DNA of 64,000 bases from positions 192,001-256,000 of the forward strand of contig CAVQMO010000010.1 of the NCBI GenBank assembly GCA_963713605.1. Direction: 5' to 3'. Made by a program: the position numbers and the translations under genes. The stretch's first letter is position 1; each line of letters begins with the position of its first letter. The notes beneath the pieces are model-generated. The model saw only the letters and a program-made list of their open reading frames with translations, ran no database searches and was not told the DNA's origin. The DNA comes from an uncultured Nitrososphaerales archaeon (GTDB lineage: Archaea; Thermoproteota; Nitrososphaeria; Nitrososphaerales; Nitrososphaeraceae). Shown here piece by piece: positions 7,681 to 61,195 of the stretch.

Positions 7681-9090
7681 ATGCAAGCAAGAGTTGTTCA
7701 CGATAAGATTTCAACCATTAATCCTGCGACAGGACAAATAATTCATTCGTATGAGACTACTGACATAGAACAAATCTCACGTATTGTCAGTAATGCTAGA
7801 ACTGCGTTTGCAAAGTGGAAAAAGAAAGACGTAGGGGAACGTTGTGATTACATTAGAAATTTGGCGAAGGTATTGAATAAGAACAGAGACCAGTATTCCA
7901 AGATTATTACACAAGAAATGGGAAAGCCCATAGCTCAGTCATATGCAGAAATCGAAAAGTGCATATGGTTATGTGAGTATTATTGTGAAAACGCTGAAAC
8001 GTTCCTTCAAGATCAAATAATACCAACCGAATTTCGCAAGAGCTTTGTTTCATTTGAACCTCTCGGAATAGTGGCAGGTATTATGCCATGGAACTTTCCA
8101 TTTTGGCAGGTTATGCGATTTGTGGTTCCAACCTTAATTGCAGGAAATGTAGCAATTCTAAAGCATTCTAGTGTATGTATAGGCTCTTCTCTAAATGTCA
8201 GAGACTCACTGGCTGATGCGGGATTTCCTGAAAATGTGTTTCAAATAGTCATTGGTGATTACAGAGCAGGTGAAGCTCTTGTCCAGTCTAAGATTGAAGC
8301 AGTATCAGTGACAGGAAGCGTTAGTACTGGAAAAAGGGTCGCAGAGCTTGCAGCCAAAGGTTTAAAAAAATTCGTATTAGAATTAGGAGGAAGCGACCCG
8401 TTTATTGTCTTAGAAGATGCTGATCTAAATCATACCGTACCTCAAGCAGTTCATTCGAGATTGTTAAATACAGGTCAAAGTTGTATTGCGGCGAAAAGGT
8501 TTATAGTAATGAAGGAAATAGCAGATGAATTCACAAGATTATTTGTACAAAATGTCAAAGGAGAAATAGTAGGAGATCCAATGGATACGAAAACTACCGT
8601 AGGACCACTGGTGAGAGACAGTCAAAGGCAAGCACTATTTAAACAAGTCAATGACTCGAGGTTAAAACATGCAGAGATATTGTTAGGTGGTAACATAATC
8701 GAAGGTAGCGGTTATTATTATGAACCAACTGTAATATCTAAGGTAAATCATGAAATGGATATATTAAGAGAAGAGGTATTCGGTCCGGTTGCGCCTATCA
8801 TTATAGTAGAAACTGAAGCCGAAGCTATTATGGAGGCAAATAATTCGAAATTTGGATTAGGTGCTAGTATATGGACTAGTAGTTTTAATAGAGGACTTAA
8901 GCTTGCTCGAGAGATTCAAAGTGGAGTTGTCAAAATAAATGAAATGGTAAGGTCGGATCCTAGGTTGCCATTTGGTGGAGTAAAATATTCTGGCATTGGA
9001 AGGGAGTTATCCGAATTTGGCATTAGGGAATTTGTCAATATAAAATCGATAGCAGTAAAAGACATTACACCCAAATTACTTGTGGAGTGA
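7681..9090 (+). CDS. gabD: NAD(P)-dependent succinate-semialdehyde dehydrogenase (SSADH/GabD1-like ALDH)
   Basis: IMPWNFPFWQV, LELGGSDPF, catalytic GQSCIAAKR, EEVFGP, SDPRLPFGG. Confidence 0.88.
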   Translation: MQARVVHDKISTINPATGQIIHSYETTDIEQISRIVSNARTAFAKWKKKDVGERCDYIRNLAKVLNKNRDQYSKIITQEMGKPIAQSYAEIEKCIWLCEYYCENAETFLQDQIIPTEFRKSFVSFEPLGIVAGIMPWNFPFWQVMRFVVPTLIAGNVAILKHSSVCIGSSLNVRDSLADAGFPENVFQIVIGDYRAGEALVQSKIEAVSVTGSVSTGKRVAELAAKGLKKFVLELGGSDPFIVLEDADLNHTVPQAVHSRLLNTGQSCIAAKRFIVMKEIADEFTRLFVQNVKGEIVGDPMDTKTTVGPLVRDSQRQALFKQVNDSRLKHAEILLGGNIIEGSGYYYEPTVISKVNHEMDILREEVFGPVAPIIIVETEAEAIMEANNSKFGLGASIWTSSFNRGLKLAREIQSGVVKINEMVRSDPRLPFGGVKYSGIGRELSEFGIREFVNIKSIAVKDITPKLLVE

Positions 9091-9254
9091 GTGAGAAACA
9101 CAATATACTTGCTAGAAAGGAAAGACGTACAAACTAACAATACGAATTTGATGTCAGAGGTCGTAGATCTAAGTTATTCGATCAAATCTAAATTATCCGA
9201 AATATCAGTTCTTAATTGCAATAGACTCCAGAATCTCTTCAATGAAACGATTGA

Positions 9255-11219
9255 ATGATGCCGACCATAGAGAATTACAAGAAATTAGATATACCTAAGC
9301 TGAAAGAATTTGAGGTTCTTGGCGAGAAGCTCAACAGGATATACATCAATATTTTAAGACGTGCACAGAATGCACATAATAAGTTTCACTTTACGGTAAA
9401 AGAAAACGAAAACGAAAATGATAAGATATGCAGCCTAGATAATCTTTTGTGCTATTTAGTATTAAGAGAGCAGAATTTATCAGATCTACAAATAAGGCTA
9501 GCTGAACAGGGCCTTGCTTCTTTAATAATGTCGGAAAGTAATGTACTTGTTAGCGTCGAACAGGTGCTCAAACATTTTGGAATCAAGCCAGTTGATACTA
9601 GTAGTTTATGTAAGATCGATCCCCAAAATGGGAGATTGCTTCTGACAATGCGTAATGAATTAATGTTTGGTTTGGTGCCTAAAGAAAGAAAAACACTCAT
9701 TATGGTAACACTTGATTCTTCTGATATCTATCAACATGAATTGATAGAACAGCTGCTGGAGAATGGGATGGATATTGCTCGAATAAATTGTGCTCATAAC
9801 ACAGCCAGAGAATGGAAATTACTAGTTGAAACTCTACGCGGTGTAGAAGAACAAGTGATCCAAAATGGGAAGGGAATTGAAGGACATAGATGTAAGATCT
9901 TGATGGATCTGGGAGGCCCGAAAATTCGGACAGGCCCTATGGTGCTTAAAGTCCGACCCCTACAGATATCTTCTCCTAAAGACATTCACGGTCGTCCTAT
10001 GCGTCTTGTAGAAGGATTCTTAGACAGCGAGGCAAGAGAGACAGAAGTGTTGAATTTGGACAGAGCGACATCATCGAGTTTTGTTATAGCGATATCAAAG
10101 ATCAAATACGGAGGGCTAGGGAGCCTGAGAATAGGTCAAAAAATAACATTCAAGGATGCACGGGATGGACGTCCACGTAATCTCACGGTACTTGAGCGAA
10201 TCAGTCCTACTAGAGTAAGGATAGGTCTGGAGCACACAGCTTTTCTAAAGGGGGGTATAAAACTGGAATGTCAAATAAATGATTCAGATAACGATCCTAA
10301 GTGCTCGTTTACCGTCGGGGTTACGAAACCTCAACCGATTGAGATAAGTGTAGAAGCTGGGAATATCCTCCGCCTTTATAGAGATACAAGGTTAGGTCAT
10401 GGCGGCGATAGTAACCGCTTTGGCGATGATCCTGCAGGTATCAGTTGCACGCATCCACATATTCTTAATCAAGTTAAGGTTGGTCATAGAGTATTCATAG
10501 ACGACGGAAAAATTGAAGCAGTTGTGAAGTCATCAAAGGAGGAGTTCCTTGAATTAGAGATCGTATCACCTCATGGTATGATAGCCAAAATCAAATCCAA
10601 CAAGGGTATGAACTTTCCAGATTCAGGTATTAAAACCCCAGCGTTAACACAAGAGGATATCAAAAATTTGGACTTTATAGTTATGCATGCAGACATGGTG
10701 GGACTAAGCTTTGTGCACGGACCGCAGGATATCTACGATTTACATAAAGAGTTAACTAGACGAAATCGTGCAGATATGGGGATAGTTGCAAAGATCGAAA
10801 CATCAGATTCTGTTCACAATTTGGCTGGGACAATTATTGCTGGACTTGACCTGCCAAAATTTGCAGTACTAATCGCAAGGGGCGATTTGGCAGTCGAGGT
10901 GGGATTTGAAAATTTGGCCTTCGTTCAAGAAGATATCTTCTGTTTATGTGAAGCCGCACACGTGCCTGTCATCTTGGCCACACAAATACTAGAAAGCCTA
11001 ACGGAAAGTGGCCTTCGAAGTCGCCCGGAAATAGCAGACGCACTAATAATGGGACGGCGCGCAGAATGTGTGATGCTAAGCAATGGACCAAATATACTTG
11101 AGGCGGTCAGAACCCTGGCCCGATTATTGAATAGTGGAGAACGATATATAATAAAGTATCAACTATTCAGGGAGTTTACTGAACAATATGGTGTATTTGA
11201 TGATAAAGACACGGATTGA
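9255..11219 (+). CDS. pyk: Pyruvate kinase, long atypical form
   Basis: ARINCAH, DLGGPKIRTG, IDDGKI, GLSFV, AKIET, IARGDLAVE, ATQILESL. It has an N-terminal extension and an enlarged B-domain region. Confidence 0.85.
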   Translation: MMPTIENYKKLDIPKLKEFEVLGEKLNRIYINILRRAQNAHNKFHFTVKENENENDKICSLDNLLCYLVLREQNLSDLQIRLAEQGLASLIMSESNVLVSVEQVLKHFGIKPVDTSSLCKIDPQNGRLLLTMRNELMFGLVPKERKTLIMVTLDSSDIYQHELIEQLLENGMDIARINCAHNTAREWKLLVETLRGVEEQVIQNGKGIEGHRCKILMDLGGPKIRTGPMVLKVRPLQISSPKDIHGRPMRLVEGFLDSEARETEVLNLDRATSSSFVIAISKIKYGGLGSLRIGQKITFKDARDGRPRNLTVLERISPTRVRIGLEHTAFLKGGIKLECQINDSDNDPKCSFTVGVTKPQPIEISVEAGNILRLYRDTRLGHGGDSNRFGDDPAGISCTHPHILNQVKVGHRVFIDDGKIEAVVKSSKEEFLELEIVSPHGMIAKIKSNKGMNFPDSGIKTPALTQEDIKNLDFIVMHADMVGLSFVHGPQDIYDLHKELTRRNRADMGIVAKIETSDSVHNLAGTIIAGLDLPKFAVLIARGDLAVEVGFENLAFVQEDIFCLCEAAHVPVILATQILESLTESGLRSRPEIADALIMGRRAECVMLSNGPNILEAVRTLARLLNSGERYIIKYQLFREFTEQYGVFDDKDTD

Positions 11220-23906: not shown

Positions 23907-24467
23907 TTATTTGTATTCAGCTCTTACATCATTTTCATAATTCATAAGTAGCTTATGCACCTTAGGATCAATTATATAACTGCAGTATGGAGCTCCTCGG
24001 TGTTCATCATAGTAGTTCTTGTGATAGTCTTCTGCAACATAAAAGCTACTAAATGGAGTTATTTCTGTTACGATTGGATCTTTGTAGATTCCTTCATTGC
24101 CAAGCGCTCTTTTAGACTTCTCAGCAATCTCTTTTTGTTTCATGTCATGATAAAAGATTGCAGAGCGGTATTGTGTCCCAACATCATTACCCTGCCTGTT
24201 AAGGGTCGTGGGATCATGTGTACGCCAGAAAATGTCAAGTATTTTCTCAAAATTTATAACCTTTGGATCAAATTCGATCTGTATTGATTCTGCATGACCG
24301 GTTCTCCCACTGCATATTTGTTCATAAGAAGGGTTTTTCACTTGTCCTCCAGAATATCCAGGAAGAACTGATTTTATGCCCTTTAGTCTTTTGAAGACTG
24401 CTTCACTACACCAAAAACACCCGTTTGCAAACGTTGCAGTTTCGTAATCAGTTTTGCTTTCACTCAT
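23907..24467 (-). CDS. msrA: Peptide-methionine (S)-S-oxide reductase
   Basis: GCFWC, TGHAE, HDPTTLNRQGNDVGTQYRS, AEDYH. Confidence 0.97.
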   Translation of the reverse strand: MSESKTDYETATFANGCFWCSEAVFKRLKGIKSVLPGYSGGQVKNPSYEQICSGRTGHAESIQIEFDPKVINFEKILDIFWRTHDPTTLNRQGNDVGTQYRSAIFYHDMKQKEIAEKSKRALGNEGIYKDPIVTEITPFSSFYVAEDYHKNYYDEHRGAPYCSYIIDPKVHKLLMNYENDVRAEYK

Positions 24468-24849
24468 TTATGATCTTTGGCAACTCCTTGCTCTTTGGGA
24501 CAAAATAGATAGATAATGAATTGACACACTCACGAGTATTCTTATCGGTCAGACCTTCGCCTAGAAATTCATGCCCTAAATGTCCACCGCAATTCTTACA
24601 CTCTATTTCTGTTCTCACCCCATCAGGATCAGGGATACGCCTTATTGCATTTGGTAACGTTTCATCAAAACTTGGCCAGCCACACCCGGCATTGAATTTA
24701 CTTTTAGATGAAAAGAGAGGTGCATTACATTTTCTACAAATAAATGTTCCATCTCCATAAAAATCATCGTACTCTCCGGTGAAGGGAGCCTCTGTTGCTT
24801 TATTGATGATAACTCGTTCTTGTTCTCTGGTAAGTTTATTGTAATTCAT
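24460..24849 (-). CDS. msrB: Peptide-methionine (R)-S-oxide reductase
   Basis: TEAPFTG, CRKC, GCGWPSF, CGGHLGH, RECVNS. Overlaps the msrA start. Confidence 0.96.
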   Translation of the reverse strand: MNYNKLTREQERVIINKATEAPFTGEYDDFYGDGTFICRKCNAPLFSSKSKFNAGCGWPSFDETLPNAIRRIPDPDGVRTEIECKNCGGHLGHEFLGEGLTDKNTRECVNSLSIYFVPKSKELPKIINE

Positions 24850-38824: not shown

Positions 38825-40648
38825 ATGCAGGAACGAAAACCTGTATTGTTTACCGTAGATGATAATCCACAAGTATTGAAAGCTCTTGAACGTGATTTGA
38901 CCAAGCAATACAGGAATCGTTTTCGTATTGCTCAAGCAGAAGCTGGCCAGAAAGGTCTTGAAATAATAAAACAATTGGAATTGAGCAACGACGTGGTAGC
39001 TTTATTCTTGGCTGATCAAAGAATGCCTCAAATGACTGGAATTGAGTTCCTAGGGGCGACAATGGATATATTCCCTGATGCAAAGCGGGTCTTACTTACA
39101 GATTACGGCGATGCTAATGCCGTCATGAAGTCCATCAACAACAAAGTTAACATCGACTATTACTTGACGAAACCATGGGATCCGCCAGAGGTTCATCTTT
39201 ATCCTCCTTTCAATGATTTGTTGGACGACTGGTGGGCTTCATTCCGATCTCCATTTGAGGGGATTAAGGTCATTGGTTTAAGGTGGTCGCCCCGATCTCA
39301 TGAGATCAGAGAATTTCTGGCCAGAAATGGAGTACCATATCGATGGCTAGACATTGAAAATGCTGAAGAAGCTCGTCGTCTAGTTTCTTTGGTCATGACC
39401 AACGCAAAAAAAAGCCAGTCTCATGTTTCTAATGATAAGTATTTCAACGCTGGGATTTCTTCTACATTAATGGGTGATACCACTAGTGAGAATATTAGTG
39501 ACACTACACCCTCAGATATTACACCTATATCAGAGTCTTTTCATGATATCTCTTCATTACATCTACCAGTAGTAATTTTTCCTGATGGCACATACATGGC
39601 TGAACCAACCAACTCACAGCTTGCAGAAAAAATTGGCCTCAAGACTAGAGCACAGATGGCCTTTTATGATTTGATAATAATAGGTGGAGGTCCATCAGGA
39701 TTGGCAGCAGCAGTATATGGTTCCTCAGAGGGACTGCACACATTATTAGTTGAGAGACAGGCACCAGGAGGTCAGGCAGGGACTAGTTCTAACATAGAAA
39801 ACTATCTTGGTTTTCCTTCAGGTTTGACCGGTTCTAGCCTTGCCAGACGTGCCGTTGCTCAAGCCATTAAGTTTGGTACCGAGATTCTAGATCCACAGGA
39901 AGTTGTCGAGCTACGTATTGATGGTCAGTATAGAATCGCTAAATTAGGAGATGGAACAGAGATTAGATGCCATACAATGATTATTGCTTGTGGTGTAACA
40001 TATCGCATGCTTGATGATGTAAAGGGGATAGACAAGTTGACGGGAGCTGGGGTATATTACGGAGCATCTATGGTAGAGGCGTTAAACTACAAGGGACAAG
40101 ATGTCTATGTAGTTGGGGGAGCCAATTCTGCAGGACAAGCTGCAGTATATTTTGCAAGATATGCAAAACAGGTAACACTCATTGTTCGTAGTGATTCCTT
40201 AGAAAAGAAGATGTCTCAGTATCTAGTACATCAGATAAGCGAAACGAAGAATGTTAGAGTATGGTTGAATTTCGTAGTCACTGAGGTTAAGGGTGAAAAC
40301 AAACTCGAGAGACTCATAGTAACTAATATAAAAACAGGAGAGAAGCGAGATGTTCTAGCATCAGGCCTGTTTATATATATAGGCGCAGAACCCCATACAG
40401 ACTGGCTGAATGGGCTGATCAAACGTGATGTACACGGCTTCATTTTGACTGGCTCAGACTTACAGCAAGACGAACTTAAAAACCAAGGCTTGACGCTTGA
40501 TCGGCAACCTTCTTTGCTCGAAACTAGTATTCCGGGGGTATTCGCTGCTGGGGATGTACGTCATGGTTCGATCAAAAGGATAGCAGCAGGAGTGGGAGAA
40601 GGATCGACAGCTATTCAGTTGATACATCAATATTTAATGAATACTTAA
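38825..40648 (+). CDS. Response regulator-thioredoxin reductase-like fusion
   Basis: REC domain (VDD, ADQRMP, KPW), glutaredoxin-like segment, FAD motif GGGPSG, NAD(P)H motif GGANSAG and GVFAAGD. Confidence 0.92.
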   Translation: MQERKPVLFTVDDNPQVLKALERDLTKQYRNRFRIAQAEAGQKGLEIIKQLELSNDVVALFLADQRMPQMTGIEFLGATMDIFPDAKRVLLTDYGDANAVMKSINNKVNIDYYLTKPWDPPEVHLYPPFNDLLDDWWASFRSPFEGIKVIGLRWSPRSHEIREFLARNGVPYRWLDIENAEEARRLVSLVMTNAKKSQSHVSNDKYFNAGISSTLMGDTTSENISDTTPSDITPISESFHDISSLHLPVVIFPDGTYMAEPTNSQLAEKIGLKTRAQMAFYDLIIIGGGPSGLAAAVYGSSEGLHTLLVERQAPGGQAGTSSNIENYLGFPSGLTGSSLARRAVAQAIKFGTEILDPQEVVELRIDGQYRIAKLGDGTEIRCHTMIIACGVTYRMLDDVKGIDKLTGAGVYYGASMVEALNYKGQDVYVVGGANSAGQAAVYFARYAKQVTLIVRSDSLEKKMSQYLVHQISETKNVRVWLNFVVTEVKGENKLERLIVTNIKTGEKRDVLASGLFIYIGAEPHTDWLNGLIKRDVHGFILTGSDLQQDELKNQGLTLDRQPSLLETSIPGVFAAGDVRHGSIKRIAAGVGEGSTAIQLIHQYLMNT

Positions 40649-41023
40649 TACTATCATGTATTATTTTAAGAGCTGATTATCCTCATAACGGAGCCACAAA
40701 GCTTTTGAACTATATTTAATAAATTTGGCTCTATTAACTAAACGACTGCGAACTCCATGGGAAACATATTTTTAACAATTCTTTAACTCTTCCGTCGTTT
40801 GCCCGCTTCTGCCTATACTTCATCTACCATAACTTTGCAGAGGGTTTGAACTATCTCATCGGATACTTCAGTATAGCGCGGTAGACAAATCTCTAGTGAG
40901 GAAATAGCTGCAGGCATTTCAGTCAGCTTCACAGACATTGGTTGGGGAGGCAATTACAGTGATGGCAAGCAAAGGCAGTGAGATACATATTTTTATAGTT
41001 GCACTATCTTGGCTTATTCAGAA

Positions 41024-41681
41024 TATGAGCAATAATGATGAAAAGCCCACAAAGATACTCATTGTGTTTTATAGCAGATATGGGAATACTGCGAGAATGG
41101 CAGAAGAGATTGCATACGGTGCAAAGGAGCTACCGAATATCAAGGTAACTATAAGAAGAATTGCTGATAATGTTCCGATGGAAGTAATTTCTAAGGATCC
41201 TGCATGGACAAAAATAGCTGAAGATATGAATGACAGATATCCAACCATATCGATAGAAGATGTAGTAAAAGAATTACCCAATAATGATGCAATAATTTTT
41301 GGATCTCCTACTCGCTTTGGAAATATGGCTGCACCCATGAAAAGTATGTGGGATGAAACGACCGAGCTGTGGACAACTGGTTCGCTAATAGGAAAGATCG
41401 GTGCTGTGTTTACTAGCGCCGCATCTGTACATGGAGGGCAAGAGACAACAGCAATCTCTATGATGTTTCCTATGTTTCATCACGGGATGATACTAGTTGG
41501 TGTGCCTTATTCTGTTGGAGAGCTGACGGAGAGTGGTAGTCCTTATGGTCCTAGTAGGATCGTTGGGAGATTAGCGAATCAGGAAATTCAGCAAGCTGAT
41601 ATTAGAGTTGCTAGAGCGTTAGGTAGAAGAGTTTCTGAAGTAACGAAGAAGTTTGTTCTTGGACAACTTCTTAAGTTGTAA
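41024..41681 (+). CDS. wrbA: NAD(P)H:quinone oxidoreductase type IV (flavodoxin-like)
   Basis: YSRYGNT, GSPTRFGNM, HGGQETT, GSPYG. Start taken at MSNND. Confidence 0.93.
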
Positions 41682-42667: not shown

Positions 42668-45005
42668 GTGACAAAATATTTCTACAAATAATAGTCGTGA
42701 TAGTTCAGACGGTCAGAATAATGCCTCTCAAAATAACACGGATTTTGGAGAAAGTGCCAAAAAAGATACTAAGGTTACCAGCTTAAAAGTTGCAGAAGCA
42801 GAACAACGCGATGTAGGAAGAAAAATTGCACGTGTGGATCCCAAAGTAGCCGAGAATCTAAATATTACGAGTGGGGACGCGCTGGAACTATCTTCACTTG
42901 GTAAGAAAACGACTGTCCTAAGCTGGCCTGCACGGAGTACCGATAGCGGCAAGGGCTTGATTCGTATTGATGGCTACACACGGAATAGGCTTGACGTTGG
43001 GATGAATGATCAAATTGAAGTTAGAAAAGTTCAATCTAGGGAAGCAAAGAGCATAACCTTTGCCCCCACTGAACCACTGAGAATTGTAGGAGCAGAGGAA
43101 TATCTTGCAGAGTATCTTAATGGACAATTAATGACGAAGGGCGATACAATACCTTTGAGCGTTATGGGTCAAAGAATTGACCTAGTAGTGATTGCTACAA
43201 ATCCATCCGGCCCAGTAATAGTTACTCCATCTACAAAGATTACGGTTTCTGAGGAGAGCGCTAAGGCAGTGCAAGTGTCAAAGGAAGGTGGCGCACCTTC
43301 TATAACGTATGAGGACATAGGAGGGTTGGGAAACGCCGTTGGCCGAGTGAGAGAGATGATTGAGCTTCCTCTAAGGCATCCAGAATTATTCAAGAGACTG
43401 GGAGTAGAAGCGCCCAAGGGCGTTCTCCTTCATGGTCCACCTGGAACTGGAAAGACCTTGTTGGCCAAGGCGGTCGCCAATGAAACAAATGCTAATTTCT
43501 ACACTATAGGCGGTCCAGAAATAATGAGTAAATATTATGGAGAGTCAGAAGAGAGATTACGAAATGTATTCCAGCAGGCTGAAAAGAATGCTCCTTCAAT
43601 TATATTCATAGATGAAATAGATTCGATTGCTCCAAAACGAGCAGAAGTGACAGGAGAAGTCGAGAGGAGAATCGTAGCTCAACTGCTTTCTCTCATGGAT
43701 GGTATGTCAGCAAGGGGAAAAGTAGTAGTTATAGGGGCAACAAACAGAGTTAATGCTGTCGACGAGGCTCTACGGCGTCCAGGCAGGTTTGATCGAGAAA
43801 TAGAAATCGGTGTACCAGATCGAAAGGGCAGGTTAGAAATATTACAGATACATACAAGAGGAATGCCTCTTGCAAAAGATGTAAACCTGGAAAAGCTGGC
43901 CGATGTTTCTCACGGCTATGTTGGAGCGGACCTGCATGCCTTGACAAGGGAAGCAGGACTTGCAGCATTAAGGCGAGTCCTTCCTGAAGTTGATTTATCT
44001 TCTGAAAGCATACCGGCGGAGACATTGAGGAAAATCATTGTTACTATGCAGGATTTCATGGATGTTGTCAGAGAAATGGAACCATCGGCGATGAGGGAAG
44101 TATTCGTAGAGGTCCCTGATGTGAAATGGGATGATATTGGTGGATTATCATCGATTAAACAGGAATTGCAAGAAGCCGTTGAATGGCCCCTCAAATATCA
44201 GGGCATATTTACCTATGCTGACGCCACACCACCAAAAGGAATCTTGCTTTACGGTCCCCCTGGAACAGGTAAAACGTTGATGGCAAAGGCAACAGCCAAT
44301 GAGAGTGAAGCTAATTTCATAAGCATTAAAGGCCCAGAGCTTATTTCAAAATGGGTCGGCGAGTCAGAGAAAGGAGTTCGCGAGGTGTTCCGAAAGGCCA
44401 GGCAAGCTGCTCCATGTGTTATTTTCTTTGATGAAATAGACGCCATCGCCCCCAGACGAGGCGGCGACATCGGGGACTCGCATGTAACTGAGAGATTAAT
44501 AAGCCAACTACTGACAGAATTAGATGGGCTTGAGGTGTTGACTAACGTCATTGTCATTGGTGCTACAAACCGTCCTGACATAATAGATGCTGCCTTACTA
44601 AGACCCGGTAGGTTTGATAGGTTGCTCTATGTCCCCTCACCAGATCGTGATTCACGAATCCAAATAATAAAGATTCATACAAATAAAAAACCTCTAGCAG
44701 ATGATGTCAATATTGAAAAGTTAGCAGATTTTACGGATAGATATACTGGGGCTGATATTTCGTCCTTGTCCTCTGCCGCAGTTATGCTTGCATTACGGGA
44801 ACACGTCTCAAAATATAAGGATCCAAAAGAAGCTGATGCTCATGTGAAGGAACTGAAAATACATATGAAGCATTTTGAGGAGGCAATCAAGAAGATTAGG
44901 CCATTGTCAACCCAAGAACTGAACATGTACAAGGGCATCTCTGAACAATTTGGAAAGCCCAATGTTGGAACACCAGCATCGCCAGAGAATATTGGAACTG
45001 GCTAG
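42668..45005 (+). CDS. cdc48: CDC48/VAT AAA+ ATPase
   Basis: Two AAA modules (GPPGTGKT x2, DEID x2, RPGRFDR x2). The frame is open upstream of 42834 through [17 protein letters not shown], and the GTG at 42668 is out of frame by one base. Confidence 0.96.
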
Positions 45006-46988: not shown

Positions 46989-47083
46989 CTCTGTAGATTG
47001 CGGATGATTTGATATTTTTCAAATAACCTTACCCAAGACCTTATAATATTCACGTTCATATTCGAATGCCTTTATCTCTTCCC
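46989..47083. repeat. 95-bp direct repeat, copy 1 (cyclase 3' end and downstream)
   Basis: Matches 53282-53376 with 4 mismatches. Confidence 0.95.
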
Positions 47084-47630
47084 CGACTTTAACCGTTACC
47101 GGCTCTATATCAAACTGATTCTGAATTCTTTCCCTTGTATGTAAAGATACGATTATCTGATTGGCTGTAGACCTATTTTGTAATCTGCGGGCTAGATTTA
47201 CACTACTTCCTATTGCTGTAAATTCTTCTCTTTCTTTAGTGGGTATACTCCCGACAATAGAATATCCTATGTTCATGACACACTTAAAGACCGATAGAGA
47301 GATTGTCGTCTTTACCTTTATTTCTCCATATGTCAAGCCATACTATTCTGATCCTCTCAATGGATTCTTTCAATTCTAATGCAGCATTAAGTGCATTAAT
47401 GGCATATCTACTCGCGTCATCGTCTACACCATGGAAACCAAAGAAAGCCATTATACCATCGCCGATAAATTTATCCAACACACCATCCATGATTGTAAAT
47501 GATTTCAGTTGCTTTTGTATAATATTCTTTCAAGAATTCAACAACTAAGACGGCATGTTCTTTAAGGTTCTCGCATAATACAGAAAATCCGCTGAGGTCC
47601 CAAAAAACAACGGTCAAAATTTTGTATGGA
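47019..47630 (-). pseudogene. Class III adenylate/guanylate cyclase catalytic domain, frameshifted, N-terminus missing
   Basis: LTVVFWDLSGFS, LDKFIGDGIMAFFG, FTAIGSSVNLARRL in three frames. Confidence 0.88.
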
Positions 47631-48042
47631 TCTTTACTAGATCCGGATCTGCAATTTTTAATAGTGTATCTATCCCGAACGCACAGCATCACACACTGAA
47701 GTACTTTCTGAAAGTGAATACTGAGTCTAAGCAATTAGAGAAAAGTTAGACCGGGAAAAAGCTCAAGTTCAAACATAATTCGATTGAAATGCGATAATGA
47801 GACATTCTATTTAATTGGTTCTTGATTTATGCAAAAGCAGAGGATCCATCAGTACCTGCTGAAGTTGTACTGACAGTGTGTATCAGTGTAGAAGAAATGC
47901 TATTGATTACTCATAAATATACGAGCATTACTCTGAATGCAATGTACAAATTTCCTCGTTGTTGCCAGGATCAGAATAACACAGCTACCATTCACAAGAT
48001 CAGCCCAAAATTCTAAACTAATATTAAGCGATCAGTATCACT

Positions 48043-49021
48043 TTATCTTAAATCTCTTAATGCTTTAATGAGATCTATTTTTGAAATGATTCCAATAGGT
48101 CGTTTTTTCGTCTTTTTTTCTTCCAATGGTGGCTCAATAACAGGAAGACCACTTAATCCTTGTCTTACCATTATCTTTGCCGCTTCTGCCAAATCTGTAT
48201 CCTCATAAATTACATGAGGATTAGGTGTGAATATATCTCGTATACGTATGAGTGCAGGCTCAAGAAACCTATCTTGGTTATTTCTCTTAGATGATGAAAA
48301 TATGATCTGAAGGTACTCGTAGACTGACCTCAGAGTTTTTGATCTTATTGCTAGAATTACCCTCGAAATATCTGTTTCTGTGAGGATTCCCAATAAGCCA
48401 TCACTATGATTGTTTGCTGCCAGTGACTACAAGTCGAGAAATATTTTTCTCTGCCATAAGTTCTGCCGCCCTTGACACTTTCTCATTAATTGAAATGGTG
48501 AAGACAGATTTTGACATGTAGTCTTTTACCGATGCTAAGTCCCTACAATTTTCAGAAAAAAATCTAGCAAAGTCGGTTGACGTTATTATCCCCGACAACT
48601 GTATTTTCTTATTTAATGGTAACTCTGATCGTTCCCCATAATCTTCTTCAACAACTATCAGTGAGCTTATAGTGCTACCATGGTCATGCAGTATTCCTGC
48701 ACAATCAACTATACTAACATTCTTTTTTGTCGTGGTCATGCTTTTCGTCATTGCTTCGTCAACTGGTATTTCATGAAGCTCTCTATCAGTTTGATCTGAG
48801 ATTAGAAATTTAATAATATCCTTTATCGTTACTATACCGACGGGATACCTTTTATTCCTATTATCAACAATAACAATTTTCTTAATTCTATACCTTGACA
48901 TCAGATTTTGTGCTATTAGTAAATTATCTTGAGGCACTGCTGTAATAACAGCCTTAGTCATTAAATCCTTGGCTTTGAAATCTTCGATATACTTCTTAAA
49001 TAACCTATTGAGCATATCCAT
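48043..49021 (-). CDS. Multi-CBS-domain protein (one frameshift)
   Basis: Repeated CBS motifs (AKDLMT, VGIVTIKDI, GIITSTD, GILTETD, GIISKID). Confidence 0.88.
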
Positions 49022-49130: not shown

Positions 49131-49820
49131 CTATTCTATCTTTACTTCTTTACCTTTAGGTTTTGCCTGTTCCTTTCTCTTGAAAGCTATTTCAAGTACC
49201 CCATTTTTATACGTGGATCTGACTGTTTCAGTATCCGCCTCAGGTGGTATATCAATGACACGATGATATTTCCTTTGTGGATCCTCACTCTTAACTTCAA
49301 CTGAATGATCGTAAGCATTTATCTTGATATTTTCTTTAGCCACACCTGGCATTTCTATTATTACCTTGATTTCTTTATCATTTGTAGTAACATCTGCTAA
49401 TGGTTCTCTTTCGCCTGAAATGATAGGTTTGGCTGATGAGGATGTCCCCCCTAATCGATAAGATGGTCTCAAATTACCAAACTCCCTTACCTTGGGTTTG
49501 CCGTCTGGACCTATCGTCATTGAATATCCATAAACAAGTGGACCCACTTCTCTCACCTTCGCTCCATCAGGAGTTTGATACTCTTTTATAAGATCCTTCG
49601 GTGCTGTCGACTCTATTTCCTTTAATTGGTCCTCAAAAGTTCTCTCCATTTCTCTTCGCATTTCATCAAATTGCCTTGGCATGTCACCGAACCATCCTCC
49701 TCTTCCCAAAGCGGGTAATCCCGTCCTCCCTGTTCCACCAAAGAAGTTCCTAAACCAGTCCTCAATATCTCTATCCCAGAAGCTCAATTCAAAATCCCTC
49801 TGAGTACATCTCGTTATCAA
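49131..49820 (-). CDS. hsp20: Archaeal small heat-shock protein Hsp20 (likely start TTG at 49787)
   Basis: GPLVYGYSMTIGPDGKPKVREFGN, EMPGV.KENI, STYKNGVLEI. Confidence 0.95.
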   Translation of the reverse strand: MITRCTQRDFELSFWDRDIEDWFRNFFGGTGRTGLPALGRGGWFGDMPRQFDEMRREMERTFEDQLKEIESTAPKDLIKEYQTPDGAKVREVGPLVYGYSMTIGPDGKPKVREFGNLRPSYRLGGTSSSAKPIISGEREPLADVTTNDKEIKVIIEMPGVAKENIKINAYDHSVEVKSEDPQRKYHRVIDIPPEADTETVRSTYKNGVLEIAFKRKEQAKPKGKEVKIE

Positions 49821-50143
49821 ACTATTTAAGGATTCATTTGCTGTTTGGAAATTATGTTACTACTTCAAGATATGCAGCCATGTCCATGATGTCTCTATTT
49901 TGCCGAAAATGTATTCTGTTGTATAATAACACCTAGGTTAAATGGCCGTACCAGAAACATTTTGGATACTTTACAAGGTGCGATGGAAAACAAACCGTCT
50001 CCAAAGTTAGGATTCCATGGAATTAACAATATTTTTTTGATCCTTCTTCAATTTTACCTGTCATACTAGATGCAAAAGTATTTTGTCTTTTACATGTTGC
50101 ATTCAAAGGAATACAGATATCCTCTTGACATGATATCTAATGG

Positions 50144-51043
50144 TCAGTTGGAAAAACGTAATGTACTGTTATCAGACATTATTTTAGCTAATTTCTTCTT
50201 CTTTTTTAATGCTAAGTCAATTTGGCTATGCAAAGTATTCTTTTCTTCCATCAAGGATTCATGCACTAGCCAATTGTCTTCATTTTCATCAATAATTTCC
50301 CCTATTCTGTTCATTGCAATTCTTAGAATCAATATCGACTTGGCTAACGATCTTTCTATTCTTCTTATTTCCTCATATCTGTCATTGTGCTCATATTTCG
50401 TATTCAAGGTATCAAGCTCTGATTGCCTTTTTAATTTATTTACTAGAAACCGGGTATCTTTTGAGCTCAATTTTTTCTTCACGATCATTTTTGCAACTTT
50501 TGATTGTAGAGAATAGTTTTTGATTGGAAGTAACTCCTGTGCAGAACTGGCATTTAGCTCTTGACTGGTGATAAAAGCAAGAACATCCCGTGGTAACTCA
50601 AGAAGCATCATATGCTTAACAATATAACTATGGCTTCTTCCAATTTTCGATGCTAGTTCGGATATCCCTCCCCAGCCGATATCCAGTACATATTTTTTAA
50701 ACGCTCTTGCCTCTTCCAATGGCTCAAGGGAGGATCTCTGTATATTTTCTACAAGCGAAATTTCAAAGGCCTCTTTTTCAGTTACTTCAACTATAACGCA
50801 TCTTATTTTTTTCCATCCCAATGTCTTGCATGCAGTATACCTTCTACAGCCTGAGACAATCTCAAAATTCCCTCCTCTATTCATCCTGATCACAACTGGT
50901 TGTAACAGTCCTATCTTCCTTATTGAATCAACGAGCTCCGGAATAGTATGAAAATAGTCTTGTCTCAGCTGATTTACGAGCTGAATTTTACTAATATCTA
51001 TGTCTTCAATAAGAGACAATAGGTGTACGTCTGAACGAATCAA
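50144..51043 (-). CDS. ParB/Spo0J/Srx-family protein with HTH
   Basis: LVDSIRKIGLLQPVVIR, FEIVSGCRRYTAC, SLVENIQRSSLEPLEEARAF, ELASKIGRSHSYI. Confidence 0.92.
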   Translation of the reverse strand: MIRSDVHLLSLIEDIDISKIQLVNQLRQDYFHTIPELVDSIRKIGLLQPVVIRMNRGGNFEIVSGCRRYTACKTLGWKKIRCVIVEVTEKEAFEISLVENIQRSSLEPLEEARAFKKYVLDIGWGGISELASKIGRSHSYIVKHMMLLELPRDVLAFITSQELNASSAQELLPIKNYSLQSKVAKMIVKKKLSSKDTRFLVNKLKRQSELDTLNTKYEHNDRYEEIRRIERSLAKSILILRIAMNRIGEIIDENEDNWLVHESLMEEKNTLHSQIDLALKKKKKLAKIMSDNSTLRFSN

Positions 51044-51364
51044 TAGCGCATTATTCTGTGTAGGACATGCGACTATTTATACATCGTGTATTTTTACCCA
51101 TATCACTTGAAGCCATAAGTTAATTACGTACAACAGAATGGTTTTCGTATCCTAAAATGAACACACCAATTTCCTTGATATGTTTAGCAAATCTATTTAC
51201 CACAAGAGACAAAACCTTCCCCCCAAAGATTTTACATGATGGGTATTTTGCTCGAAAATCGTCCAACATTCTCTTTTTTACTCACTCTAAAATGTTCGGC
51301 GTCGAACATTTCAGTATTTTGCAATGACTAACTTAATGTGATTTTCTATTGAACAGTACGTTAG

Positions 51365-51916
51365 CTATTTTTGGAGACTCATTAAATAGGTGTGTAACAC
51401 CTTTAAAAGTGTCTCCAAATCCCAGGAATAATTGTAGCGTAGTCCATTAATGTAAAATGTTGGCGTACCATTTACCCCACTGCGCACGCCGGATAGAAAA
51501 TCTTCACGGATTCGAGGGGAGTGAACATGATTAGATAAATCATATACAAACTGATTCAAATCTAATCCAAGCATGGTTGCATACTGCACCAGATGCTCTA
51601 CTCCCAGTGCTTGCTGATGTTCAAATAGGCAATCATGCATATCCCAAAACTTGTTTTGTGCACCTGCAGATTCGGCTGCCTCAGCAGCGTTCTGAGCGTT
51701 GGGATGAATTTGAGTGAGTGGAAAATTCCGAAATACAAAACGCAAGTTATCACCCAGCCTTTCTTGAACCTGTTTGATTATGTAATATGCTTGACCGCAA
51801 AACGGACACTCATAATCGCCGTATTCCACCATAGTGATAGGAGCTGTATCTGGACCTTGAATGTGATCGCGACCTCTTCTAACAGGCAGGGTTAGGTTAA
51901 CTGTTTCTATCTCCAT
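51365..51916 (-). CDS. DsbA-family thioredoxin-fold oxidoreductase
   Basis: EYGDYECPFC, FRNFPL, GVNGTPTFYING. Confidence 0.93.
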   Translation of the reverse strand: MEIETVNLTLPVRRGRDHIQGPDTAPITMVEYGDYECPFCGQAYYIIKQVQERLGDNLRFVFRNFPLTQIHPNAQNAAEAAESAGAQNKFWDMHDCLFEHQQALGVEHLVQYATMLGLDLNQFVYDLSNHVHSPRIREDFLSGVRSGVNGTPTFYINGLRYNYSWDLETLLKVLHTYLMSLQK

Positions 51917-51935
51917 TTCCTTTTTCGTTCTCCTT

Positions 51936-52469
51936 TTATTGTTCTGTTTTTTTGGGAAGTGATTCTAAGGCCTTTAGAATTCCATCAGCGCCTGGGTTGA
52001 CTCCTATTGGTGAAACATAACTCCAACGTATGATACCATCGCTATCAATGACGAATAATGCTCGTTCAGTGACCCCATCTTGTTTGCGATATACACCATA
52101 ATTGCATGCGACATTGCCTTTTGGCTCAAAGTCGGAAAGCAACGGAAAATGTAGTTTTCTATCCTTAGAAAAGGCAAGATGACACCAAACTCCATCGACT
52201 GATATCCCAAGAAGCTCAGCATTATACTGTCTAAATTCAGGAAGAATCTCGTTGTACAATGCCATCTGATCGCTGCAAACAGGCGACCAATCTGCCGGAT
52301 AGAAAGCAAGGATGGTCGGCCGACCACGGAATTCGCGGAGAGTCACAGACTGATCTGGCGTAGTTCGGAGATCAAAATCAGGCGCAGGGTTGCCTGCTTT
52401 AAGAGGTGAACTAGAATACATACTGTAAACAGACTTATGTTCTAGTTGTTGGGATGATGGTTCTGTCAA
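51936..52469 (-). CDS. Peroxiredoxin (AhpC/TSA, AhpE-like)
   Basis: FYPADWSPVC (PxxxSxxC peroxidatic motif), GISVD, LLSDF, RALFVID. Confidence 0.92.
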   Translation of the reverse strand: MTEPSSQQLEHKSVYSMYSSSPLKAGNPAPDFDLRTTPDQSVTLREFRGRPTILAFYPADWSPVCSDQMALYNEILPEFRQYNAELLGISVDGVWCHLAFSKDRKLHFPLLSDFEPKGNVACNYGVYRKQDGVTERALFVIDSDGIIRWSYVSPIGVNPGADGILKALESLPKKTEQ

Positions 52470-53116: not shown

Positions 53117-53281
53117 CCCTTAAATATATTTTTTATATTTATTTTTTTCATACTAGATTTGTTAGTCGCGAATAATCAGAATTCTTTAAAGTGATGTTTT
53201 TAGGCAAAACTTCAGCGTTAACACTTTGTTTTCACGGAGTCTATTGATTTCAGGCATGTGTGACAAATTAGACATGTCCTG

Positions 53282-53376
53282 CTCTGTAGATTGCATATGA
53301 TTTGATATTTTTAAAATAACCTTACCCAAGACCTCATAATATTCACGTTCATATTCGAATGCCTTTATCTCTTCCC
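53282..53376. repeat. 95-bp direct repeat, copy 2
   Basis: Matches 46989-47083 and is followed by a short (CA)n tract. Confidence 0.95.
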
Positions 53377-53516
53377 ACACACACACATGACAATGATATC
53401 AAGAAAATAAAAACTATTTATGTTTAGTATACACTGGTACTAAAATACATTATAATGTATTTGCACATATCTCTCAAACTGATTACTTAATAATTTAGCT
53501 TGTTCTCCTAATTCGG

Positions 53517-60040: not shown

Positions 60041-61195
60041 TCAATCACATGAATCCATCAAGCCTGCTGTTCGTAACCAGTCCTCTAATGTTTTGATACG
60101 TGCTTCTTGCTCCTTAAGTCTCTGAGCCGTTTCGCCTTCTAACTCTTGATTGCGTTTCTTTAATCGATGCCTATCATCGATAATGATTCTGTCAATCACC
60201 TTTTCATAATCTGCTAAAATGTCGCTCTCTCTAGCTCTGAGATAGTGACCTGGAATACCGATAGAATGGCCTTGTGTCAGTTCAACGGTGGCAGGAAGCA
60301 TTCCTGATAGGTCCGCCTCAGATTTGTAGAATTTGCGGAAACCTCTTGACATTTTCACCTGGCCTTTAAACTCAAAGTTTTCACGAACCCTGGACAGTTT
60401 TAGAGCATTCTTAAGAATACGCTTGAGTCCTCCAATACTTAGAGGTTTGGCAGCATGTTTGATACTGAGTGAGTTGTAGAGGTCGCGAATGAGGGGAGAA
60501 TCATGTTTGATAATCTCCCCATCCTTAGATCTCTCCTCAAGATATAGGTCTATCATACTCGCACATTCAGGAGAACAGGGAGTAAAGAAATCTTCTGAAG
60601 ATTCAGCATAGATTTGAATCCCGTAGGTTTTTTCTCCAGTACTCGTGTACATCTCCTTCAAATGACATTTTTTTAGTTTAGGAATCCCACCAATGCGCAA
60701 ACCTCCGGCTGAGGCTAACAGTAGTATGACTACTTTCTCTCTAAGCCTTCCCTGACATCCTAGTTCCAGCATCTTTTGAATCTCTTCAACCGAGTAGCCT
60801 CTATCCCTGTAACTATACTCATAGGGTGGTAACTCTATGTTTATCTTGGTCCATTTAATGGGGAACTCATCCTCTCGTATCATGAAAAAGAGGTGACGTA
60901 TCGCAGCCAGATGTAACTTTATGGATGAACGTGAGAGTTTCTCCTTCTCCCTCAGATGTATGACATAGTCGATGATCAATTGCTTGCAATGCTATAGTGA
61001 GTACTCTTTCAGTGGGTCTACATCTTTGATTTGGAAGTAAGCAAGGAAGCGAGTGATATTTTTCTCATAATGTTCTCTTGTATATGGAGAGAGACTCGGA
61101 GAAGTCGCAGGGAAGGGAATATTCTCATTACTATCCTTCTTGCCCTGCTGTTGTTCTTGCTGCATCTGTTTACTTAAGTCCAAATCCAAAGCCAA
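60041..61195 (-). pseudogene. Tyrosine recombinase/integrase with one in-frame TAG
   Basis: ORFs 60992-61195 and 60041-60979 are in the same frame. Catalytic motifs GLRIG, (R)GFRKF, QGHS and HYLR are present. Confidence 0.88.

Follow-up and report, generated by a model that had tools for sequence, protein, structure and literature searches.

What does a ParB-family protein do when it has no ParA partner and carries a cysteine where sulfiredoxin (Srx) has its catalytic residue? The question is raised by an orphan parB-type gene on the minus strand (50144-51043; 299 aa, TTG start) of a 64,000-nucleotide stretch, hereafter the window, from an uncultured Nitrososphaerales archaeon (GenBank assembly GCA_963713605.1, contig CAVQMO010000010.1, positions 192,001 to 256,000). 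A preliminary description of this DNA had proposed either a redox-switched nucleotide clamp or an enzyme that repairs over-oxidised peroxiredoxin (Prx). The computational analysis presented here favours, at a probability of roughly 0.58, a partnerless ParB-family protein that would act as a sliding clamp closed by cytidine triphosphate (CTP), loading at an adjacent palindrome and regulating the surrounding stress genes rather than repairing Prx. The starting points are the domain order, the intact nucleotide pocket, the absence of a parA match from the contig and the family-wide conservation of a palindrome beside parB.

The gene is delimited by its open reading frame (ORF), by Pfam and TIGR00180 matches and by the predicted structure. 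ParB_N (residues 14-102) is followed by HTH_ParB (residues 105-205), in agreement with the earlier statement that the helix-turn-helix (HTH) is retained, and the TIGR00180 score is 120 bits against a cut-off of 58. The C-terminal tail (about residues 219-294) is modelled as a hairpin of two helices that matches nothing beyond generic coiled coils, and an atlas search with the C-terminal part gave only matches below 0.9. The named relatives of the protein are Nitrososphaeraceae. Among solved structures, Myxococcus ParB and Noc come closest (E 1e-29 to 1e-27), with 28-34% identity to bacterial ParB/Noc matches, and Arabidopsis Srx follows at 8e-7. The predicted model (predicted local distance difference test, pLDDT, 73.6; predicted template modelling score, pTM, 0.46) matches the folds of ParB (Z 15.7), KorB (15.6) and Noc (15.4) ahead of Arabidopsis Srx (11.7) and human Srx (10.0), which supports a clamp because the fold is nearer to ParB, KorB and Noc than to Srx.

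The GLLQP, GxRR and EN motifs of the nucleotide pocket are all kept. For the family trees, which were built with FastTree, homologues were pooled with tblastn matches from 205 loci to give 317 sequences, or 162 after clustering at 90%; removal of 16 bacterial rows and one frameshifted copy left 145 Nitrososphaerota rows. On the 145-row tree the pocket residues G45, G65, R67, R68, E99 and N100 change 0-3 times: G65, R68, E99 and N100 are present in 145/145 rows with no changes, and R67 is present in 142/145 with 3 changes. Between these residues lies Cys66 (codon TGT, 50846-50848, minus strand; context IVSGCRRYTAC), which occupies position x of the phosphate-binding motif GxRR. In alignments it pairs with the Glu of GERR in ParB/Noc as well as with the Cys of SGCHR in Arabidopsis Srx, so the IVSGCRRYTA reading of the preliminary description and its placement of the Cys at the Srx catalytic position both stand. 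The departure from GERR is equally real, but it is the rule in the Nitrososphaerota ParB family rather than an exception, as the catalytic Glu is found in 0/145 Nitrososphaerota rows and in 1/150 of the best 50%-identity representatives. The reported lack of parA in the window extends to the entire 1.13-Mb contig, which has no match to the ParA/MinD profile (PF13614), and the 299-aa sequence contains no ParA-binding motif LG(R/K)GL (10.1101/2025.10.10.680097, partial text).

The strongest functional clue is a cognate palindrome that the preliminary description overlooked. This predicted ParB loading site is a 22-bp element without strand at 51290-51311, with 9-bp arms and a 4-bp centre, and its 16-bp core TGTTCG-N4-CGAACA (51293-51308), which resembles the parS consensus, lies between dsbA and parB. 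Its sequence alone is not beyond chance: the window holds 2 matches at 2 mismatches against 1.37 expected, the genome has one perfect match, as does one of two simulated genomes (the other has 0), and the exact 18-base site occurs 13 times in 201 genomes (6 probably by chance) against 9 control matches among those listed. (The genome tallies of orthologues, dsbA and exact sites include three unpublished genomes, G077, G099 and G160, on which no individual claim depends.) Its significance therefore rests on its placement beside parB. In subclade A, the group of orthologues that includes the window, the site is present at all 8 loci with enough flank (at 2 with one mismatch), 80-270 bp upstream of parB, and the DNA around it aligns poorly. 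The core TTCG-N4-CGAA occurs no more than 1 kb from parB at 38/109 non-redundant loci, compared with 0-4 for ten other spacer lengths and 1/28 dsbA control loci. When a matrix lacking the window's site was run over the 4.09-Mb genome to which the window belongs (G000), the top two sites were those next to its two lineage-specific parB genes (scores 29.3 and 24.2; reversed-genome maximum 18.0).

A family-wide scan, in which arm positions 5-7 were blinded and the threshold was each genome's 99th percentile (background 1%), placed 60/109 parB loci above background, and 47 of these 60 sites have matching arms where the positions had been blinded (shuffled mean 19.7, maximum 31 of 2000). A stricter filter for T-rich palindromes, which excludes the clade's own TGTTCG by design and undercounts, still retained 27/78 loci versus 5/2035 windows. 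The site adjoins a parB in the complete genomes G107, G043 and G001, and there is one strong site per parB gene, not a cluster (15-contig assembly). The second lineage-specific parB of G000 (C10:42282-43190; L001, L036) is frameshifted, with the strongest palindrome about 65 bp behind it; the widespread GHRR paralogue in the same genome (C1:629196-630029) has no site. A viral scan for the 20-base site gave 24 loci, and no ParB-like match lay within 1.5 kb of any of them. The site variants also appear to follow the recognition helix, in a suggestive manner: where the helix has K143, a T precedes CG in both arms at 39/41 sites, while with R143 this holds for both arms at 4/19 sites, one arm at 5 and neither at 10, and the RSH helix of the window clade pairs with G at arm position 5 in 5/6 cases.

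Cys66 itself is far less constrained than the pocket around it. Site 66 carries nine residues in the 145 rows (N 76, C 33, T 7, V 6, I 6, S 6, H 5, Y 4, R 2) and changes 24 times on their tree, against 0-3 changes for the flanking G, R and R, so that the pocket is strongly constrained and this position is not; 88/181 alignment sites change less often. Among the best 150 50%-identity representatives it is N in 59, H in 41, C in 5 and any of fourteen other residues in the rest, apart from 11 that were unread, and in the best 120 of 430 homologues the count is C 58, T 30, N 28, H 1, S 1 and gap 2. Close orthologues do keep the Cys, which is found in the first 56 homologues (at least 55% identity), in all 57 clade members covering the site among those best 120 matches, and throughout the 25-row clade that holds the window protein (tree length 4.0). 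The preliminary description had named free variation at this position as damaging to its proposal, and such variation begins one step further out: in the next clade C occurs alongside S and Y, and in a distant group alongside R. Cys is replaced by Tyr in a 78% identical pair, by Ser at 72% and by Arg at 62%, through codons one base from TGY. A single origin of Cys66 was rejected when 12 Cys rows were held together (31-row subsample; approximately unbiased test, p-AU 4e-5). The residue is thus probably one of many tolerated at the x of GxRR and fixed in the window clade by descent, and its effect is probably a tuning of hydrolysis at most. Two other cysteines, Cys72 and Cys82 (window 50798-50830), are nearly invariant (143/145 and 136/144) where bacterial ParBs have Ser or Ala; they may be buried small residues or a thiol pair.

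Among known systems, the protein is neither a sulfiredoxin nor a canonical ParABS ParB. KorB of plasmid RK2, VirB of Shigella and BisD of ICEclc are ParB-family CTP clamps that regulate transcription, and by analogy we infer that the window protein works like KorB and VirB. It shares with these two a ParB nucleotide domain, an HTH, a C-terminal dimeriser (putative for the window tail) and a palindromic loading site away from promoters (predicted in the window from its conservation), and with KorB a close structural match and a non-Glu residue in GxRR, KorB having GARR. With Ala at x KorB is still a CTPase and long-range repressor (PMC11790492, partial text), and VirB, without one catalytic residue, binds CTP with weak hydrolysis and regulates genes (PMC10770331, partial text), so a non-Glu residue has a clamp precedent. 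Unlike KorB, VirB and BisD, the window protein is archaeal and chromosomal, with Cys at x and a helical-hairpin tail; it also has no KorA- or IncC-like partner in view and is one of many paralogues, each beside its own site variant. Bacterial ParB/Spo0J with parS and Noc with its binding site NBS give the best sequence matches and share the three pocket motifs, but differ in their catalytic Glu, which is absent family-wide here, in having parA and a ParA-binding motif, in not being limited to one site per gene and in the C-terminal fold. Srx has the same fold over residues ~10-98 and Cys at the homologous position; unlike it, the window protein keeps an HTH and tail and lacks the signature Phe and His, its Cys is variable, and no typical 2-Cys Prx occurs in the genomes tested.

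The archaeal systems SegAB and AspA-ParBA (pNOB8) likewise have a palindromic site near their genes, but there it is read by SegB or AspA and both systems include a ParA, whereas the predicted reader here is the HTH of ParB itself; pNOB8 ParB binds DNA non-specifically (PMC5120986, partial text). The available text of two reviews describes only these two systems in archaea (PMC5120986, PMC7333895). According to the accessible part of a survey, archaeal HTH-bearing ParBs are scattered, rarely stand beside parA and are unlikely chromosome segregators, and that part gives no binding site or role for them (10.1101/2025.10.10.680097). A literature search in which subscription journals were poorly covered found no study of the Nitrososphaeraceae ParB family or its site, and the accessible supplement text of a survey in the Proceedings of the National Academy of Sciences has no Nitrososphaera or GCRR entry. 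The present analysis contributes a 22-bp candidate site, a single residue (K143/R143) that is a candidate for switching specificity, and naturally occurring substitutions at the catalytic position. They make archaeal gene regulation by CTP sliding clamps testable, as well as redox control through a pocket Cys.

If the protein behaves like ParB, KorB and VirB, its C-terminal hairpin would dimerise, and the two HTHs of the dimer would read the palindrome. CTP, the assumed nucleotide, would then close the N-terminal gate, and the closed ring would slide about 210 bp from the palindrome to parB's own promoter and possibly on to hsp20/CBS and prx-dsbA, where transcription would change. Paralogues of the protein stand beside receiver, contractile-injection, protease and tetratricopeptide repeat (TPR) genes, which would suit local regulators that travel with accessory modules.

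Several results weigh against a CTP clamp acting on the stress genes. The nucleotide choice is not readable from the sequence (10.1101/2025.10.10.680097, partial text), and a neutral Cys leaves it unexplained that thiol-redox neighbours occur only at Cys loci. The covariation of helix and site, with only 3 independent pairs, is not significant and can thus be called no more than suggestive. No site lies within 1 kb at 49/109 parB loci, many of them on short contigs, and in subclade B, the sister group, none was found in L053, L056 or L157; G038 has a clade-type site on a different contig, whose gene order overlaps the one found upstream of the L056 parB. Conversely, clade-type sites without a parB within 1.5 kb occur in G076, G015, G038 and G094, and in G015 and G094 the orthologue was not found. 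Sites of this kind fit relics or binding by a paralogue, but also another reader. Lastly, the loose 16-mer is not enriched genome-wide (26 versus 27 control matches in 5 genomes).

The genes that such a clamp would regulate are all on the minus strand. Upstream of parB lie a DsbA-type thioredoxin-fold gene (CPFC; 51365-51916) and the gene for a 177-aa AhpE-like Prx of the AhpC/TSA family (51936-52469). These co-oriented genes had been reported correctly, but they do not imply an operon: the gap from parB to dsbA is 321 bp, and parB has its own TATA-like box (TATAAATA, 51074-51081, minus strand), a putative promoter element about 31 bases before the start that is kept in orthologues. A prx-dsbA-parB operon was rejected on these grounds. 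Downstream, an archaeal Hsp20 gene (49131-49820), which is a candidate target, follows parB in subclade A wherever the contig extends far enough, and the next conserved neighbour is a CBS-domain gene (48043-49021) that is split over two frames here and forms a single frame of 323-366 aa in L047 and L034. In subclade A prx-dsbA stands upstream of parB at 6/7 loci with at least 1 kb upstream; dsbA is upstream in the window, G030, G041, L050, L052 and L058 (L050 and G030 being near-identical), and L051 is the exception. Subclade B (L053, L054, L056, L157) keeps the Cys but not prx-dsbA, so that the suggested link of GCRR with this pair holds in one subclade and fails in its sister. There parB sits before a disulfide-reductase-type flavoprotein gene and after a SnoaL gene; this SnoaL/NTF2-like gene directly precedes it at L053:1220-1588, L054:2-337 and L056:5491-5865.

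The prx-dsbA pair is a common cassette in its own right, with dsbA matches in 69/201 genomes. At 28 further dsbA loci, 23 have prx, and parB stands beside prx-dsbA at 0/23 (18 of these with at least 1.3 kb downstream). In G041 the Cys of ParB is kept although dsbA is frameshifted. Broken genes are frequent in the stress island (dsbA and hsp20 in G041, L034:11000-11546 and 8929-9595; parB in G038, L157/L016; the window's CBS gene) and may reflect decay or assembly error. The best solved relative of the window Prx is M. tuberculosis AhpE, bearing out the earlier AhpE-like assignment, and it has no C-terminal arm: its alignment stops at Prx1 residue 162 of 199, so that both the 172-186 arm and the YF motif, on which repair by Srx depends, are missing (PMC12093155; 10.64898/2026.08.24.746838, partial texts). 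PF10417, the Prx1/Prx6 C-terminal family, is found in 0/5 genomes, among them the three that have an intact orthologue (G000 being 87% complete), and the other AhpC/TSA proteins of G000 that were read look BCP-, AhpE- or thioredoxin-like. A decayed second copy of the AhpE-like prx lies at G000:C1:646479-646849.

A doubtful alternative keeps the same ParB-palindrome module and makes Cys66, set in the phosphate pocket and flanked by two arginines, a selected thiol sensor. Oxidation might block clamp closure, or a sulfinate might replace the missing Glu and speed CTP hydrolysis, so that the clamp would unload under peroxide. In its fuller form, which is more doubtful still, reduced Cys66 would hold the ring in its closed and spread state, and oxidation to sulfenate or sulfinate, which might imitate Glu, would unload the ring and switch prx-dsbA and hsp20. 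Besides the unbroken Cys of the 25-row clade and of the 57 clade members, the neighbourhoods speak for such a switch: when loci with 2 kb or more of flank are compared, 7/14 Cys loci and 0/62 others have thiol-redox genes within 3 kb, over a random background of 2.9%. These neighbours are prx-dsbA in subclade A, the disulfide-reductase-type flavoprotein in subclade B and trxB at L130, and for 132 of 139 singleton neighbours of non-Cys loci, Pfam matches at E<=1e-14 included no thiol-redox family. However, some three events account for the 7 loci, and part of the query set came from Cys loci. The fixation of Cys in the 25-row clade is not significant at the family rate (P about 0.12), and 7/37 equally variable sites are fixed there too. 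Moreover, the Cys rows do not form one clade, the residue is readily interchanged with Y, S and R, and a separate Cys group stands beside receiver genes with no redox neighbour. If true, this would be a redox-gated sliding-clamp regulator and would offer a living model of how Glu gave way to Cys between ParB and Srx.

The ParB-palindrome pair might instead be a ParA-less centromere or chromosome-organising unit that loads SMC or keeps a mobile island stable or organised, without specific gene regulation, which we regard as improbable. Its spread is patchy in the way that such a unit might show, with the orthologue found in 2/200 other family genomes and in 0/13 of the same genus, up to 12 matches per genome and common broken copies; thaumarchaeal integrative and conjugative elements carry ParB-like genes (PMC6563490, partial text), and one clade has a MinD/ParA-like gene directly upstream. 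On the other hand, the contig has no PF13614 match and the protein no LG(R/K)GL motif, each gene has a single site, and the window ORFs scanned, which are not all of its ORFs, include no conjugation genes.

A reading in which another stress regulator uses the palindrome as its operator, or in which the palindrome forms an RNA hairpin or terminator, and ParB does not bind it, is quite improbable. The element does score as terminator-like, and in the window it follows the dsbA stop by 54 bp; in many other clades it follows a parB stop by 35-150 bp. Further, G076, of the same genus, keeps a perfect copy about 240 bp before hsp20 although parB has been cleanly lost (about window 49839-51098): its locus L285:2957-3979 matches window 51323-51099 and 49838-49030, and there is no prx-dsbA there. 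Yet the palindrome is absent from the 28 other dsbA loci (best matrix score 6.9), its centre is dyad-symmetric in most copies, like a DNA site and unlike a loop, it follows parB through unrelated neighbourhoods with variants that follow the helix, and G076 has four other ParB-like matches.

A sulfiredoxin-like enzyme or ParB/Srx intermediate, in which Cys66 would attack the phosphorylated sulfinate of the neighbouring Prx, can draw on the alignment with the Srx Cys (32% identity to Arabidopsis Srx over 85 residues), on the prx-dsbA synteny of subclade A and on possible non-Prx substrates of human Srx (PMC12093155, partial text), but is very improbable given that IVSGCRR lacks the Phe and His of the signature F(G/S)GCHR (PMC4619093, partial text), that the 299-aa protein carries HTH_ParB while Srx, in the partly available literature, is a stand-alone domain of ~14 kDa without an HTH, that Cys is found in only 33/145 family rows, that the Prx lacks the arm, and that prx-dsbA does without parB at 23/23 other loci just as subclade B keeps the Cys without prx and G041 with a frameshifted dsbA. 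The Prx-repair proposal of the preliminary description is not supported by these sequence comparisons, and the case for a prokaryotic sulfiredoxin at this locus is removed.

Elsewhere in the family, a stand-alone receiver gene is the commonest parB neighbour (25/109 loci in several clades, against a random G000 background of 3-6% based on 55 receiver matches in 4.09 Mb), often co-oriented and within 70-260 bp (for example L066:1177-1614, L114:1072-1446 and L042). One clade with T or S at site 66 (L141, L039, L040, L155, L020) has the order histidine kinase, receiver, MinD/ParA-like ATPase, parB and then the palindrome. At several loci (L120, L134, L070, L026, L043, L071, L154) an N-type parB and palindrome are followed by contractile-injection genes (PAAR, gp25, tail tube and the core of an extracellular contractile injection system, eCIS).

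The wider window is rich in stress and redox genes (23910-24849, 38825-41678 and 42834-45005), among them msrA-msrB, a flavodoxin/WrbA-like gene, a cdc48 paralogue and a 607-aa receiver-thioredoxin-reductase-type fusion. By eye, and with no Pfam match at 1e-5, the start of the ORF at 60044-60979 resembles an integrase N-terminal domain. Fragments at 47019-47734 and 53186-53386 resemble, at the same level of scrutiny, a broken nucleotide-cyclase gene, a short piece of which is repeated on the far side of the prx-parB block.

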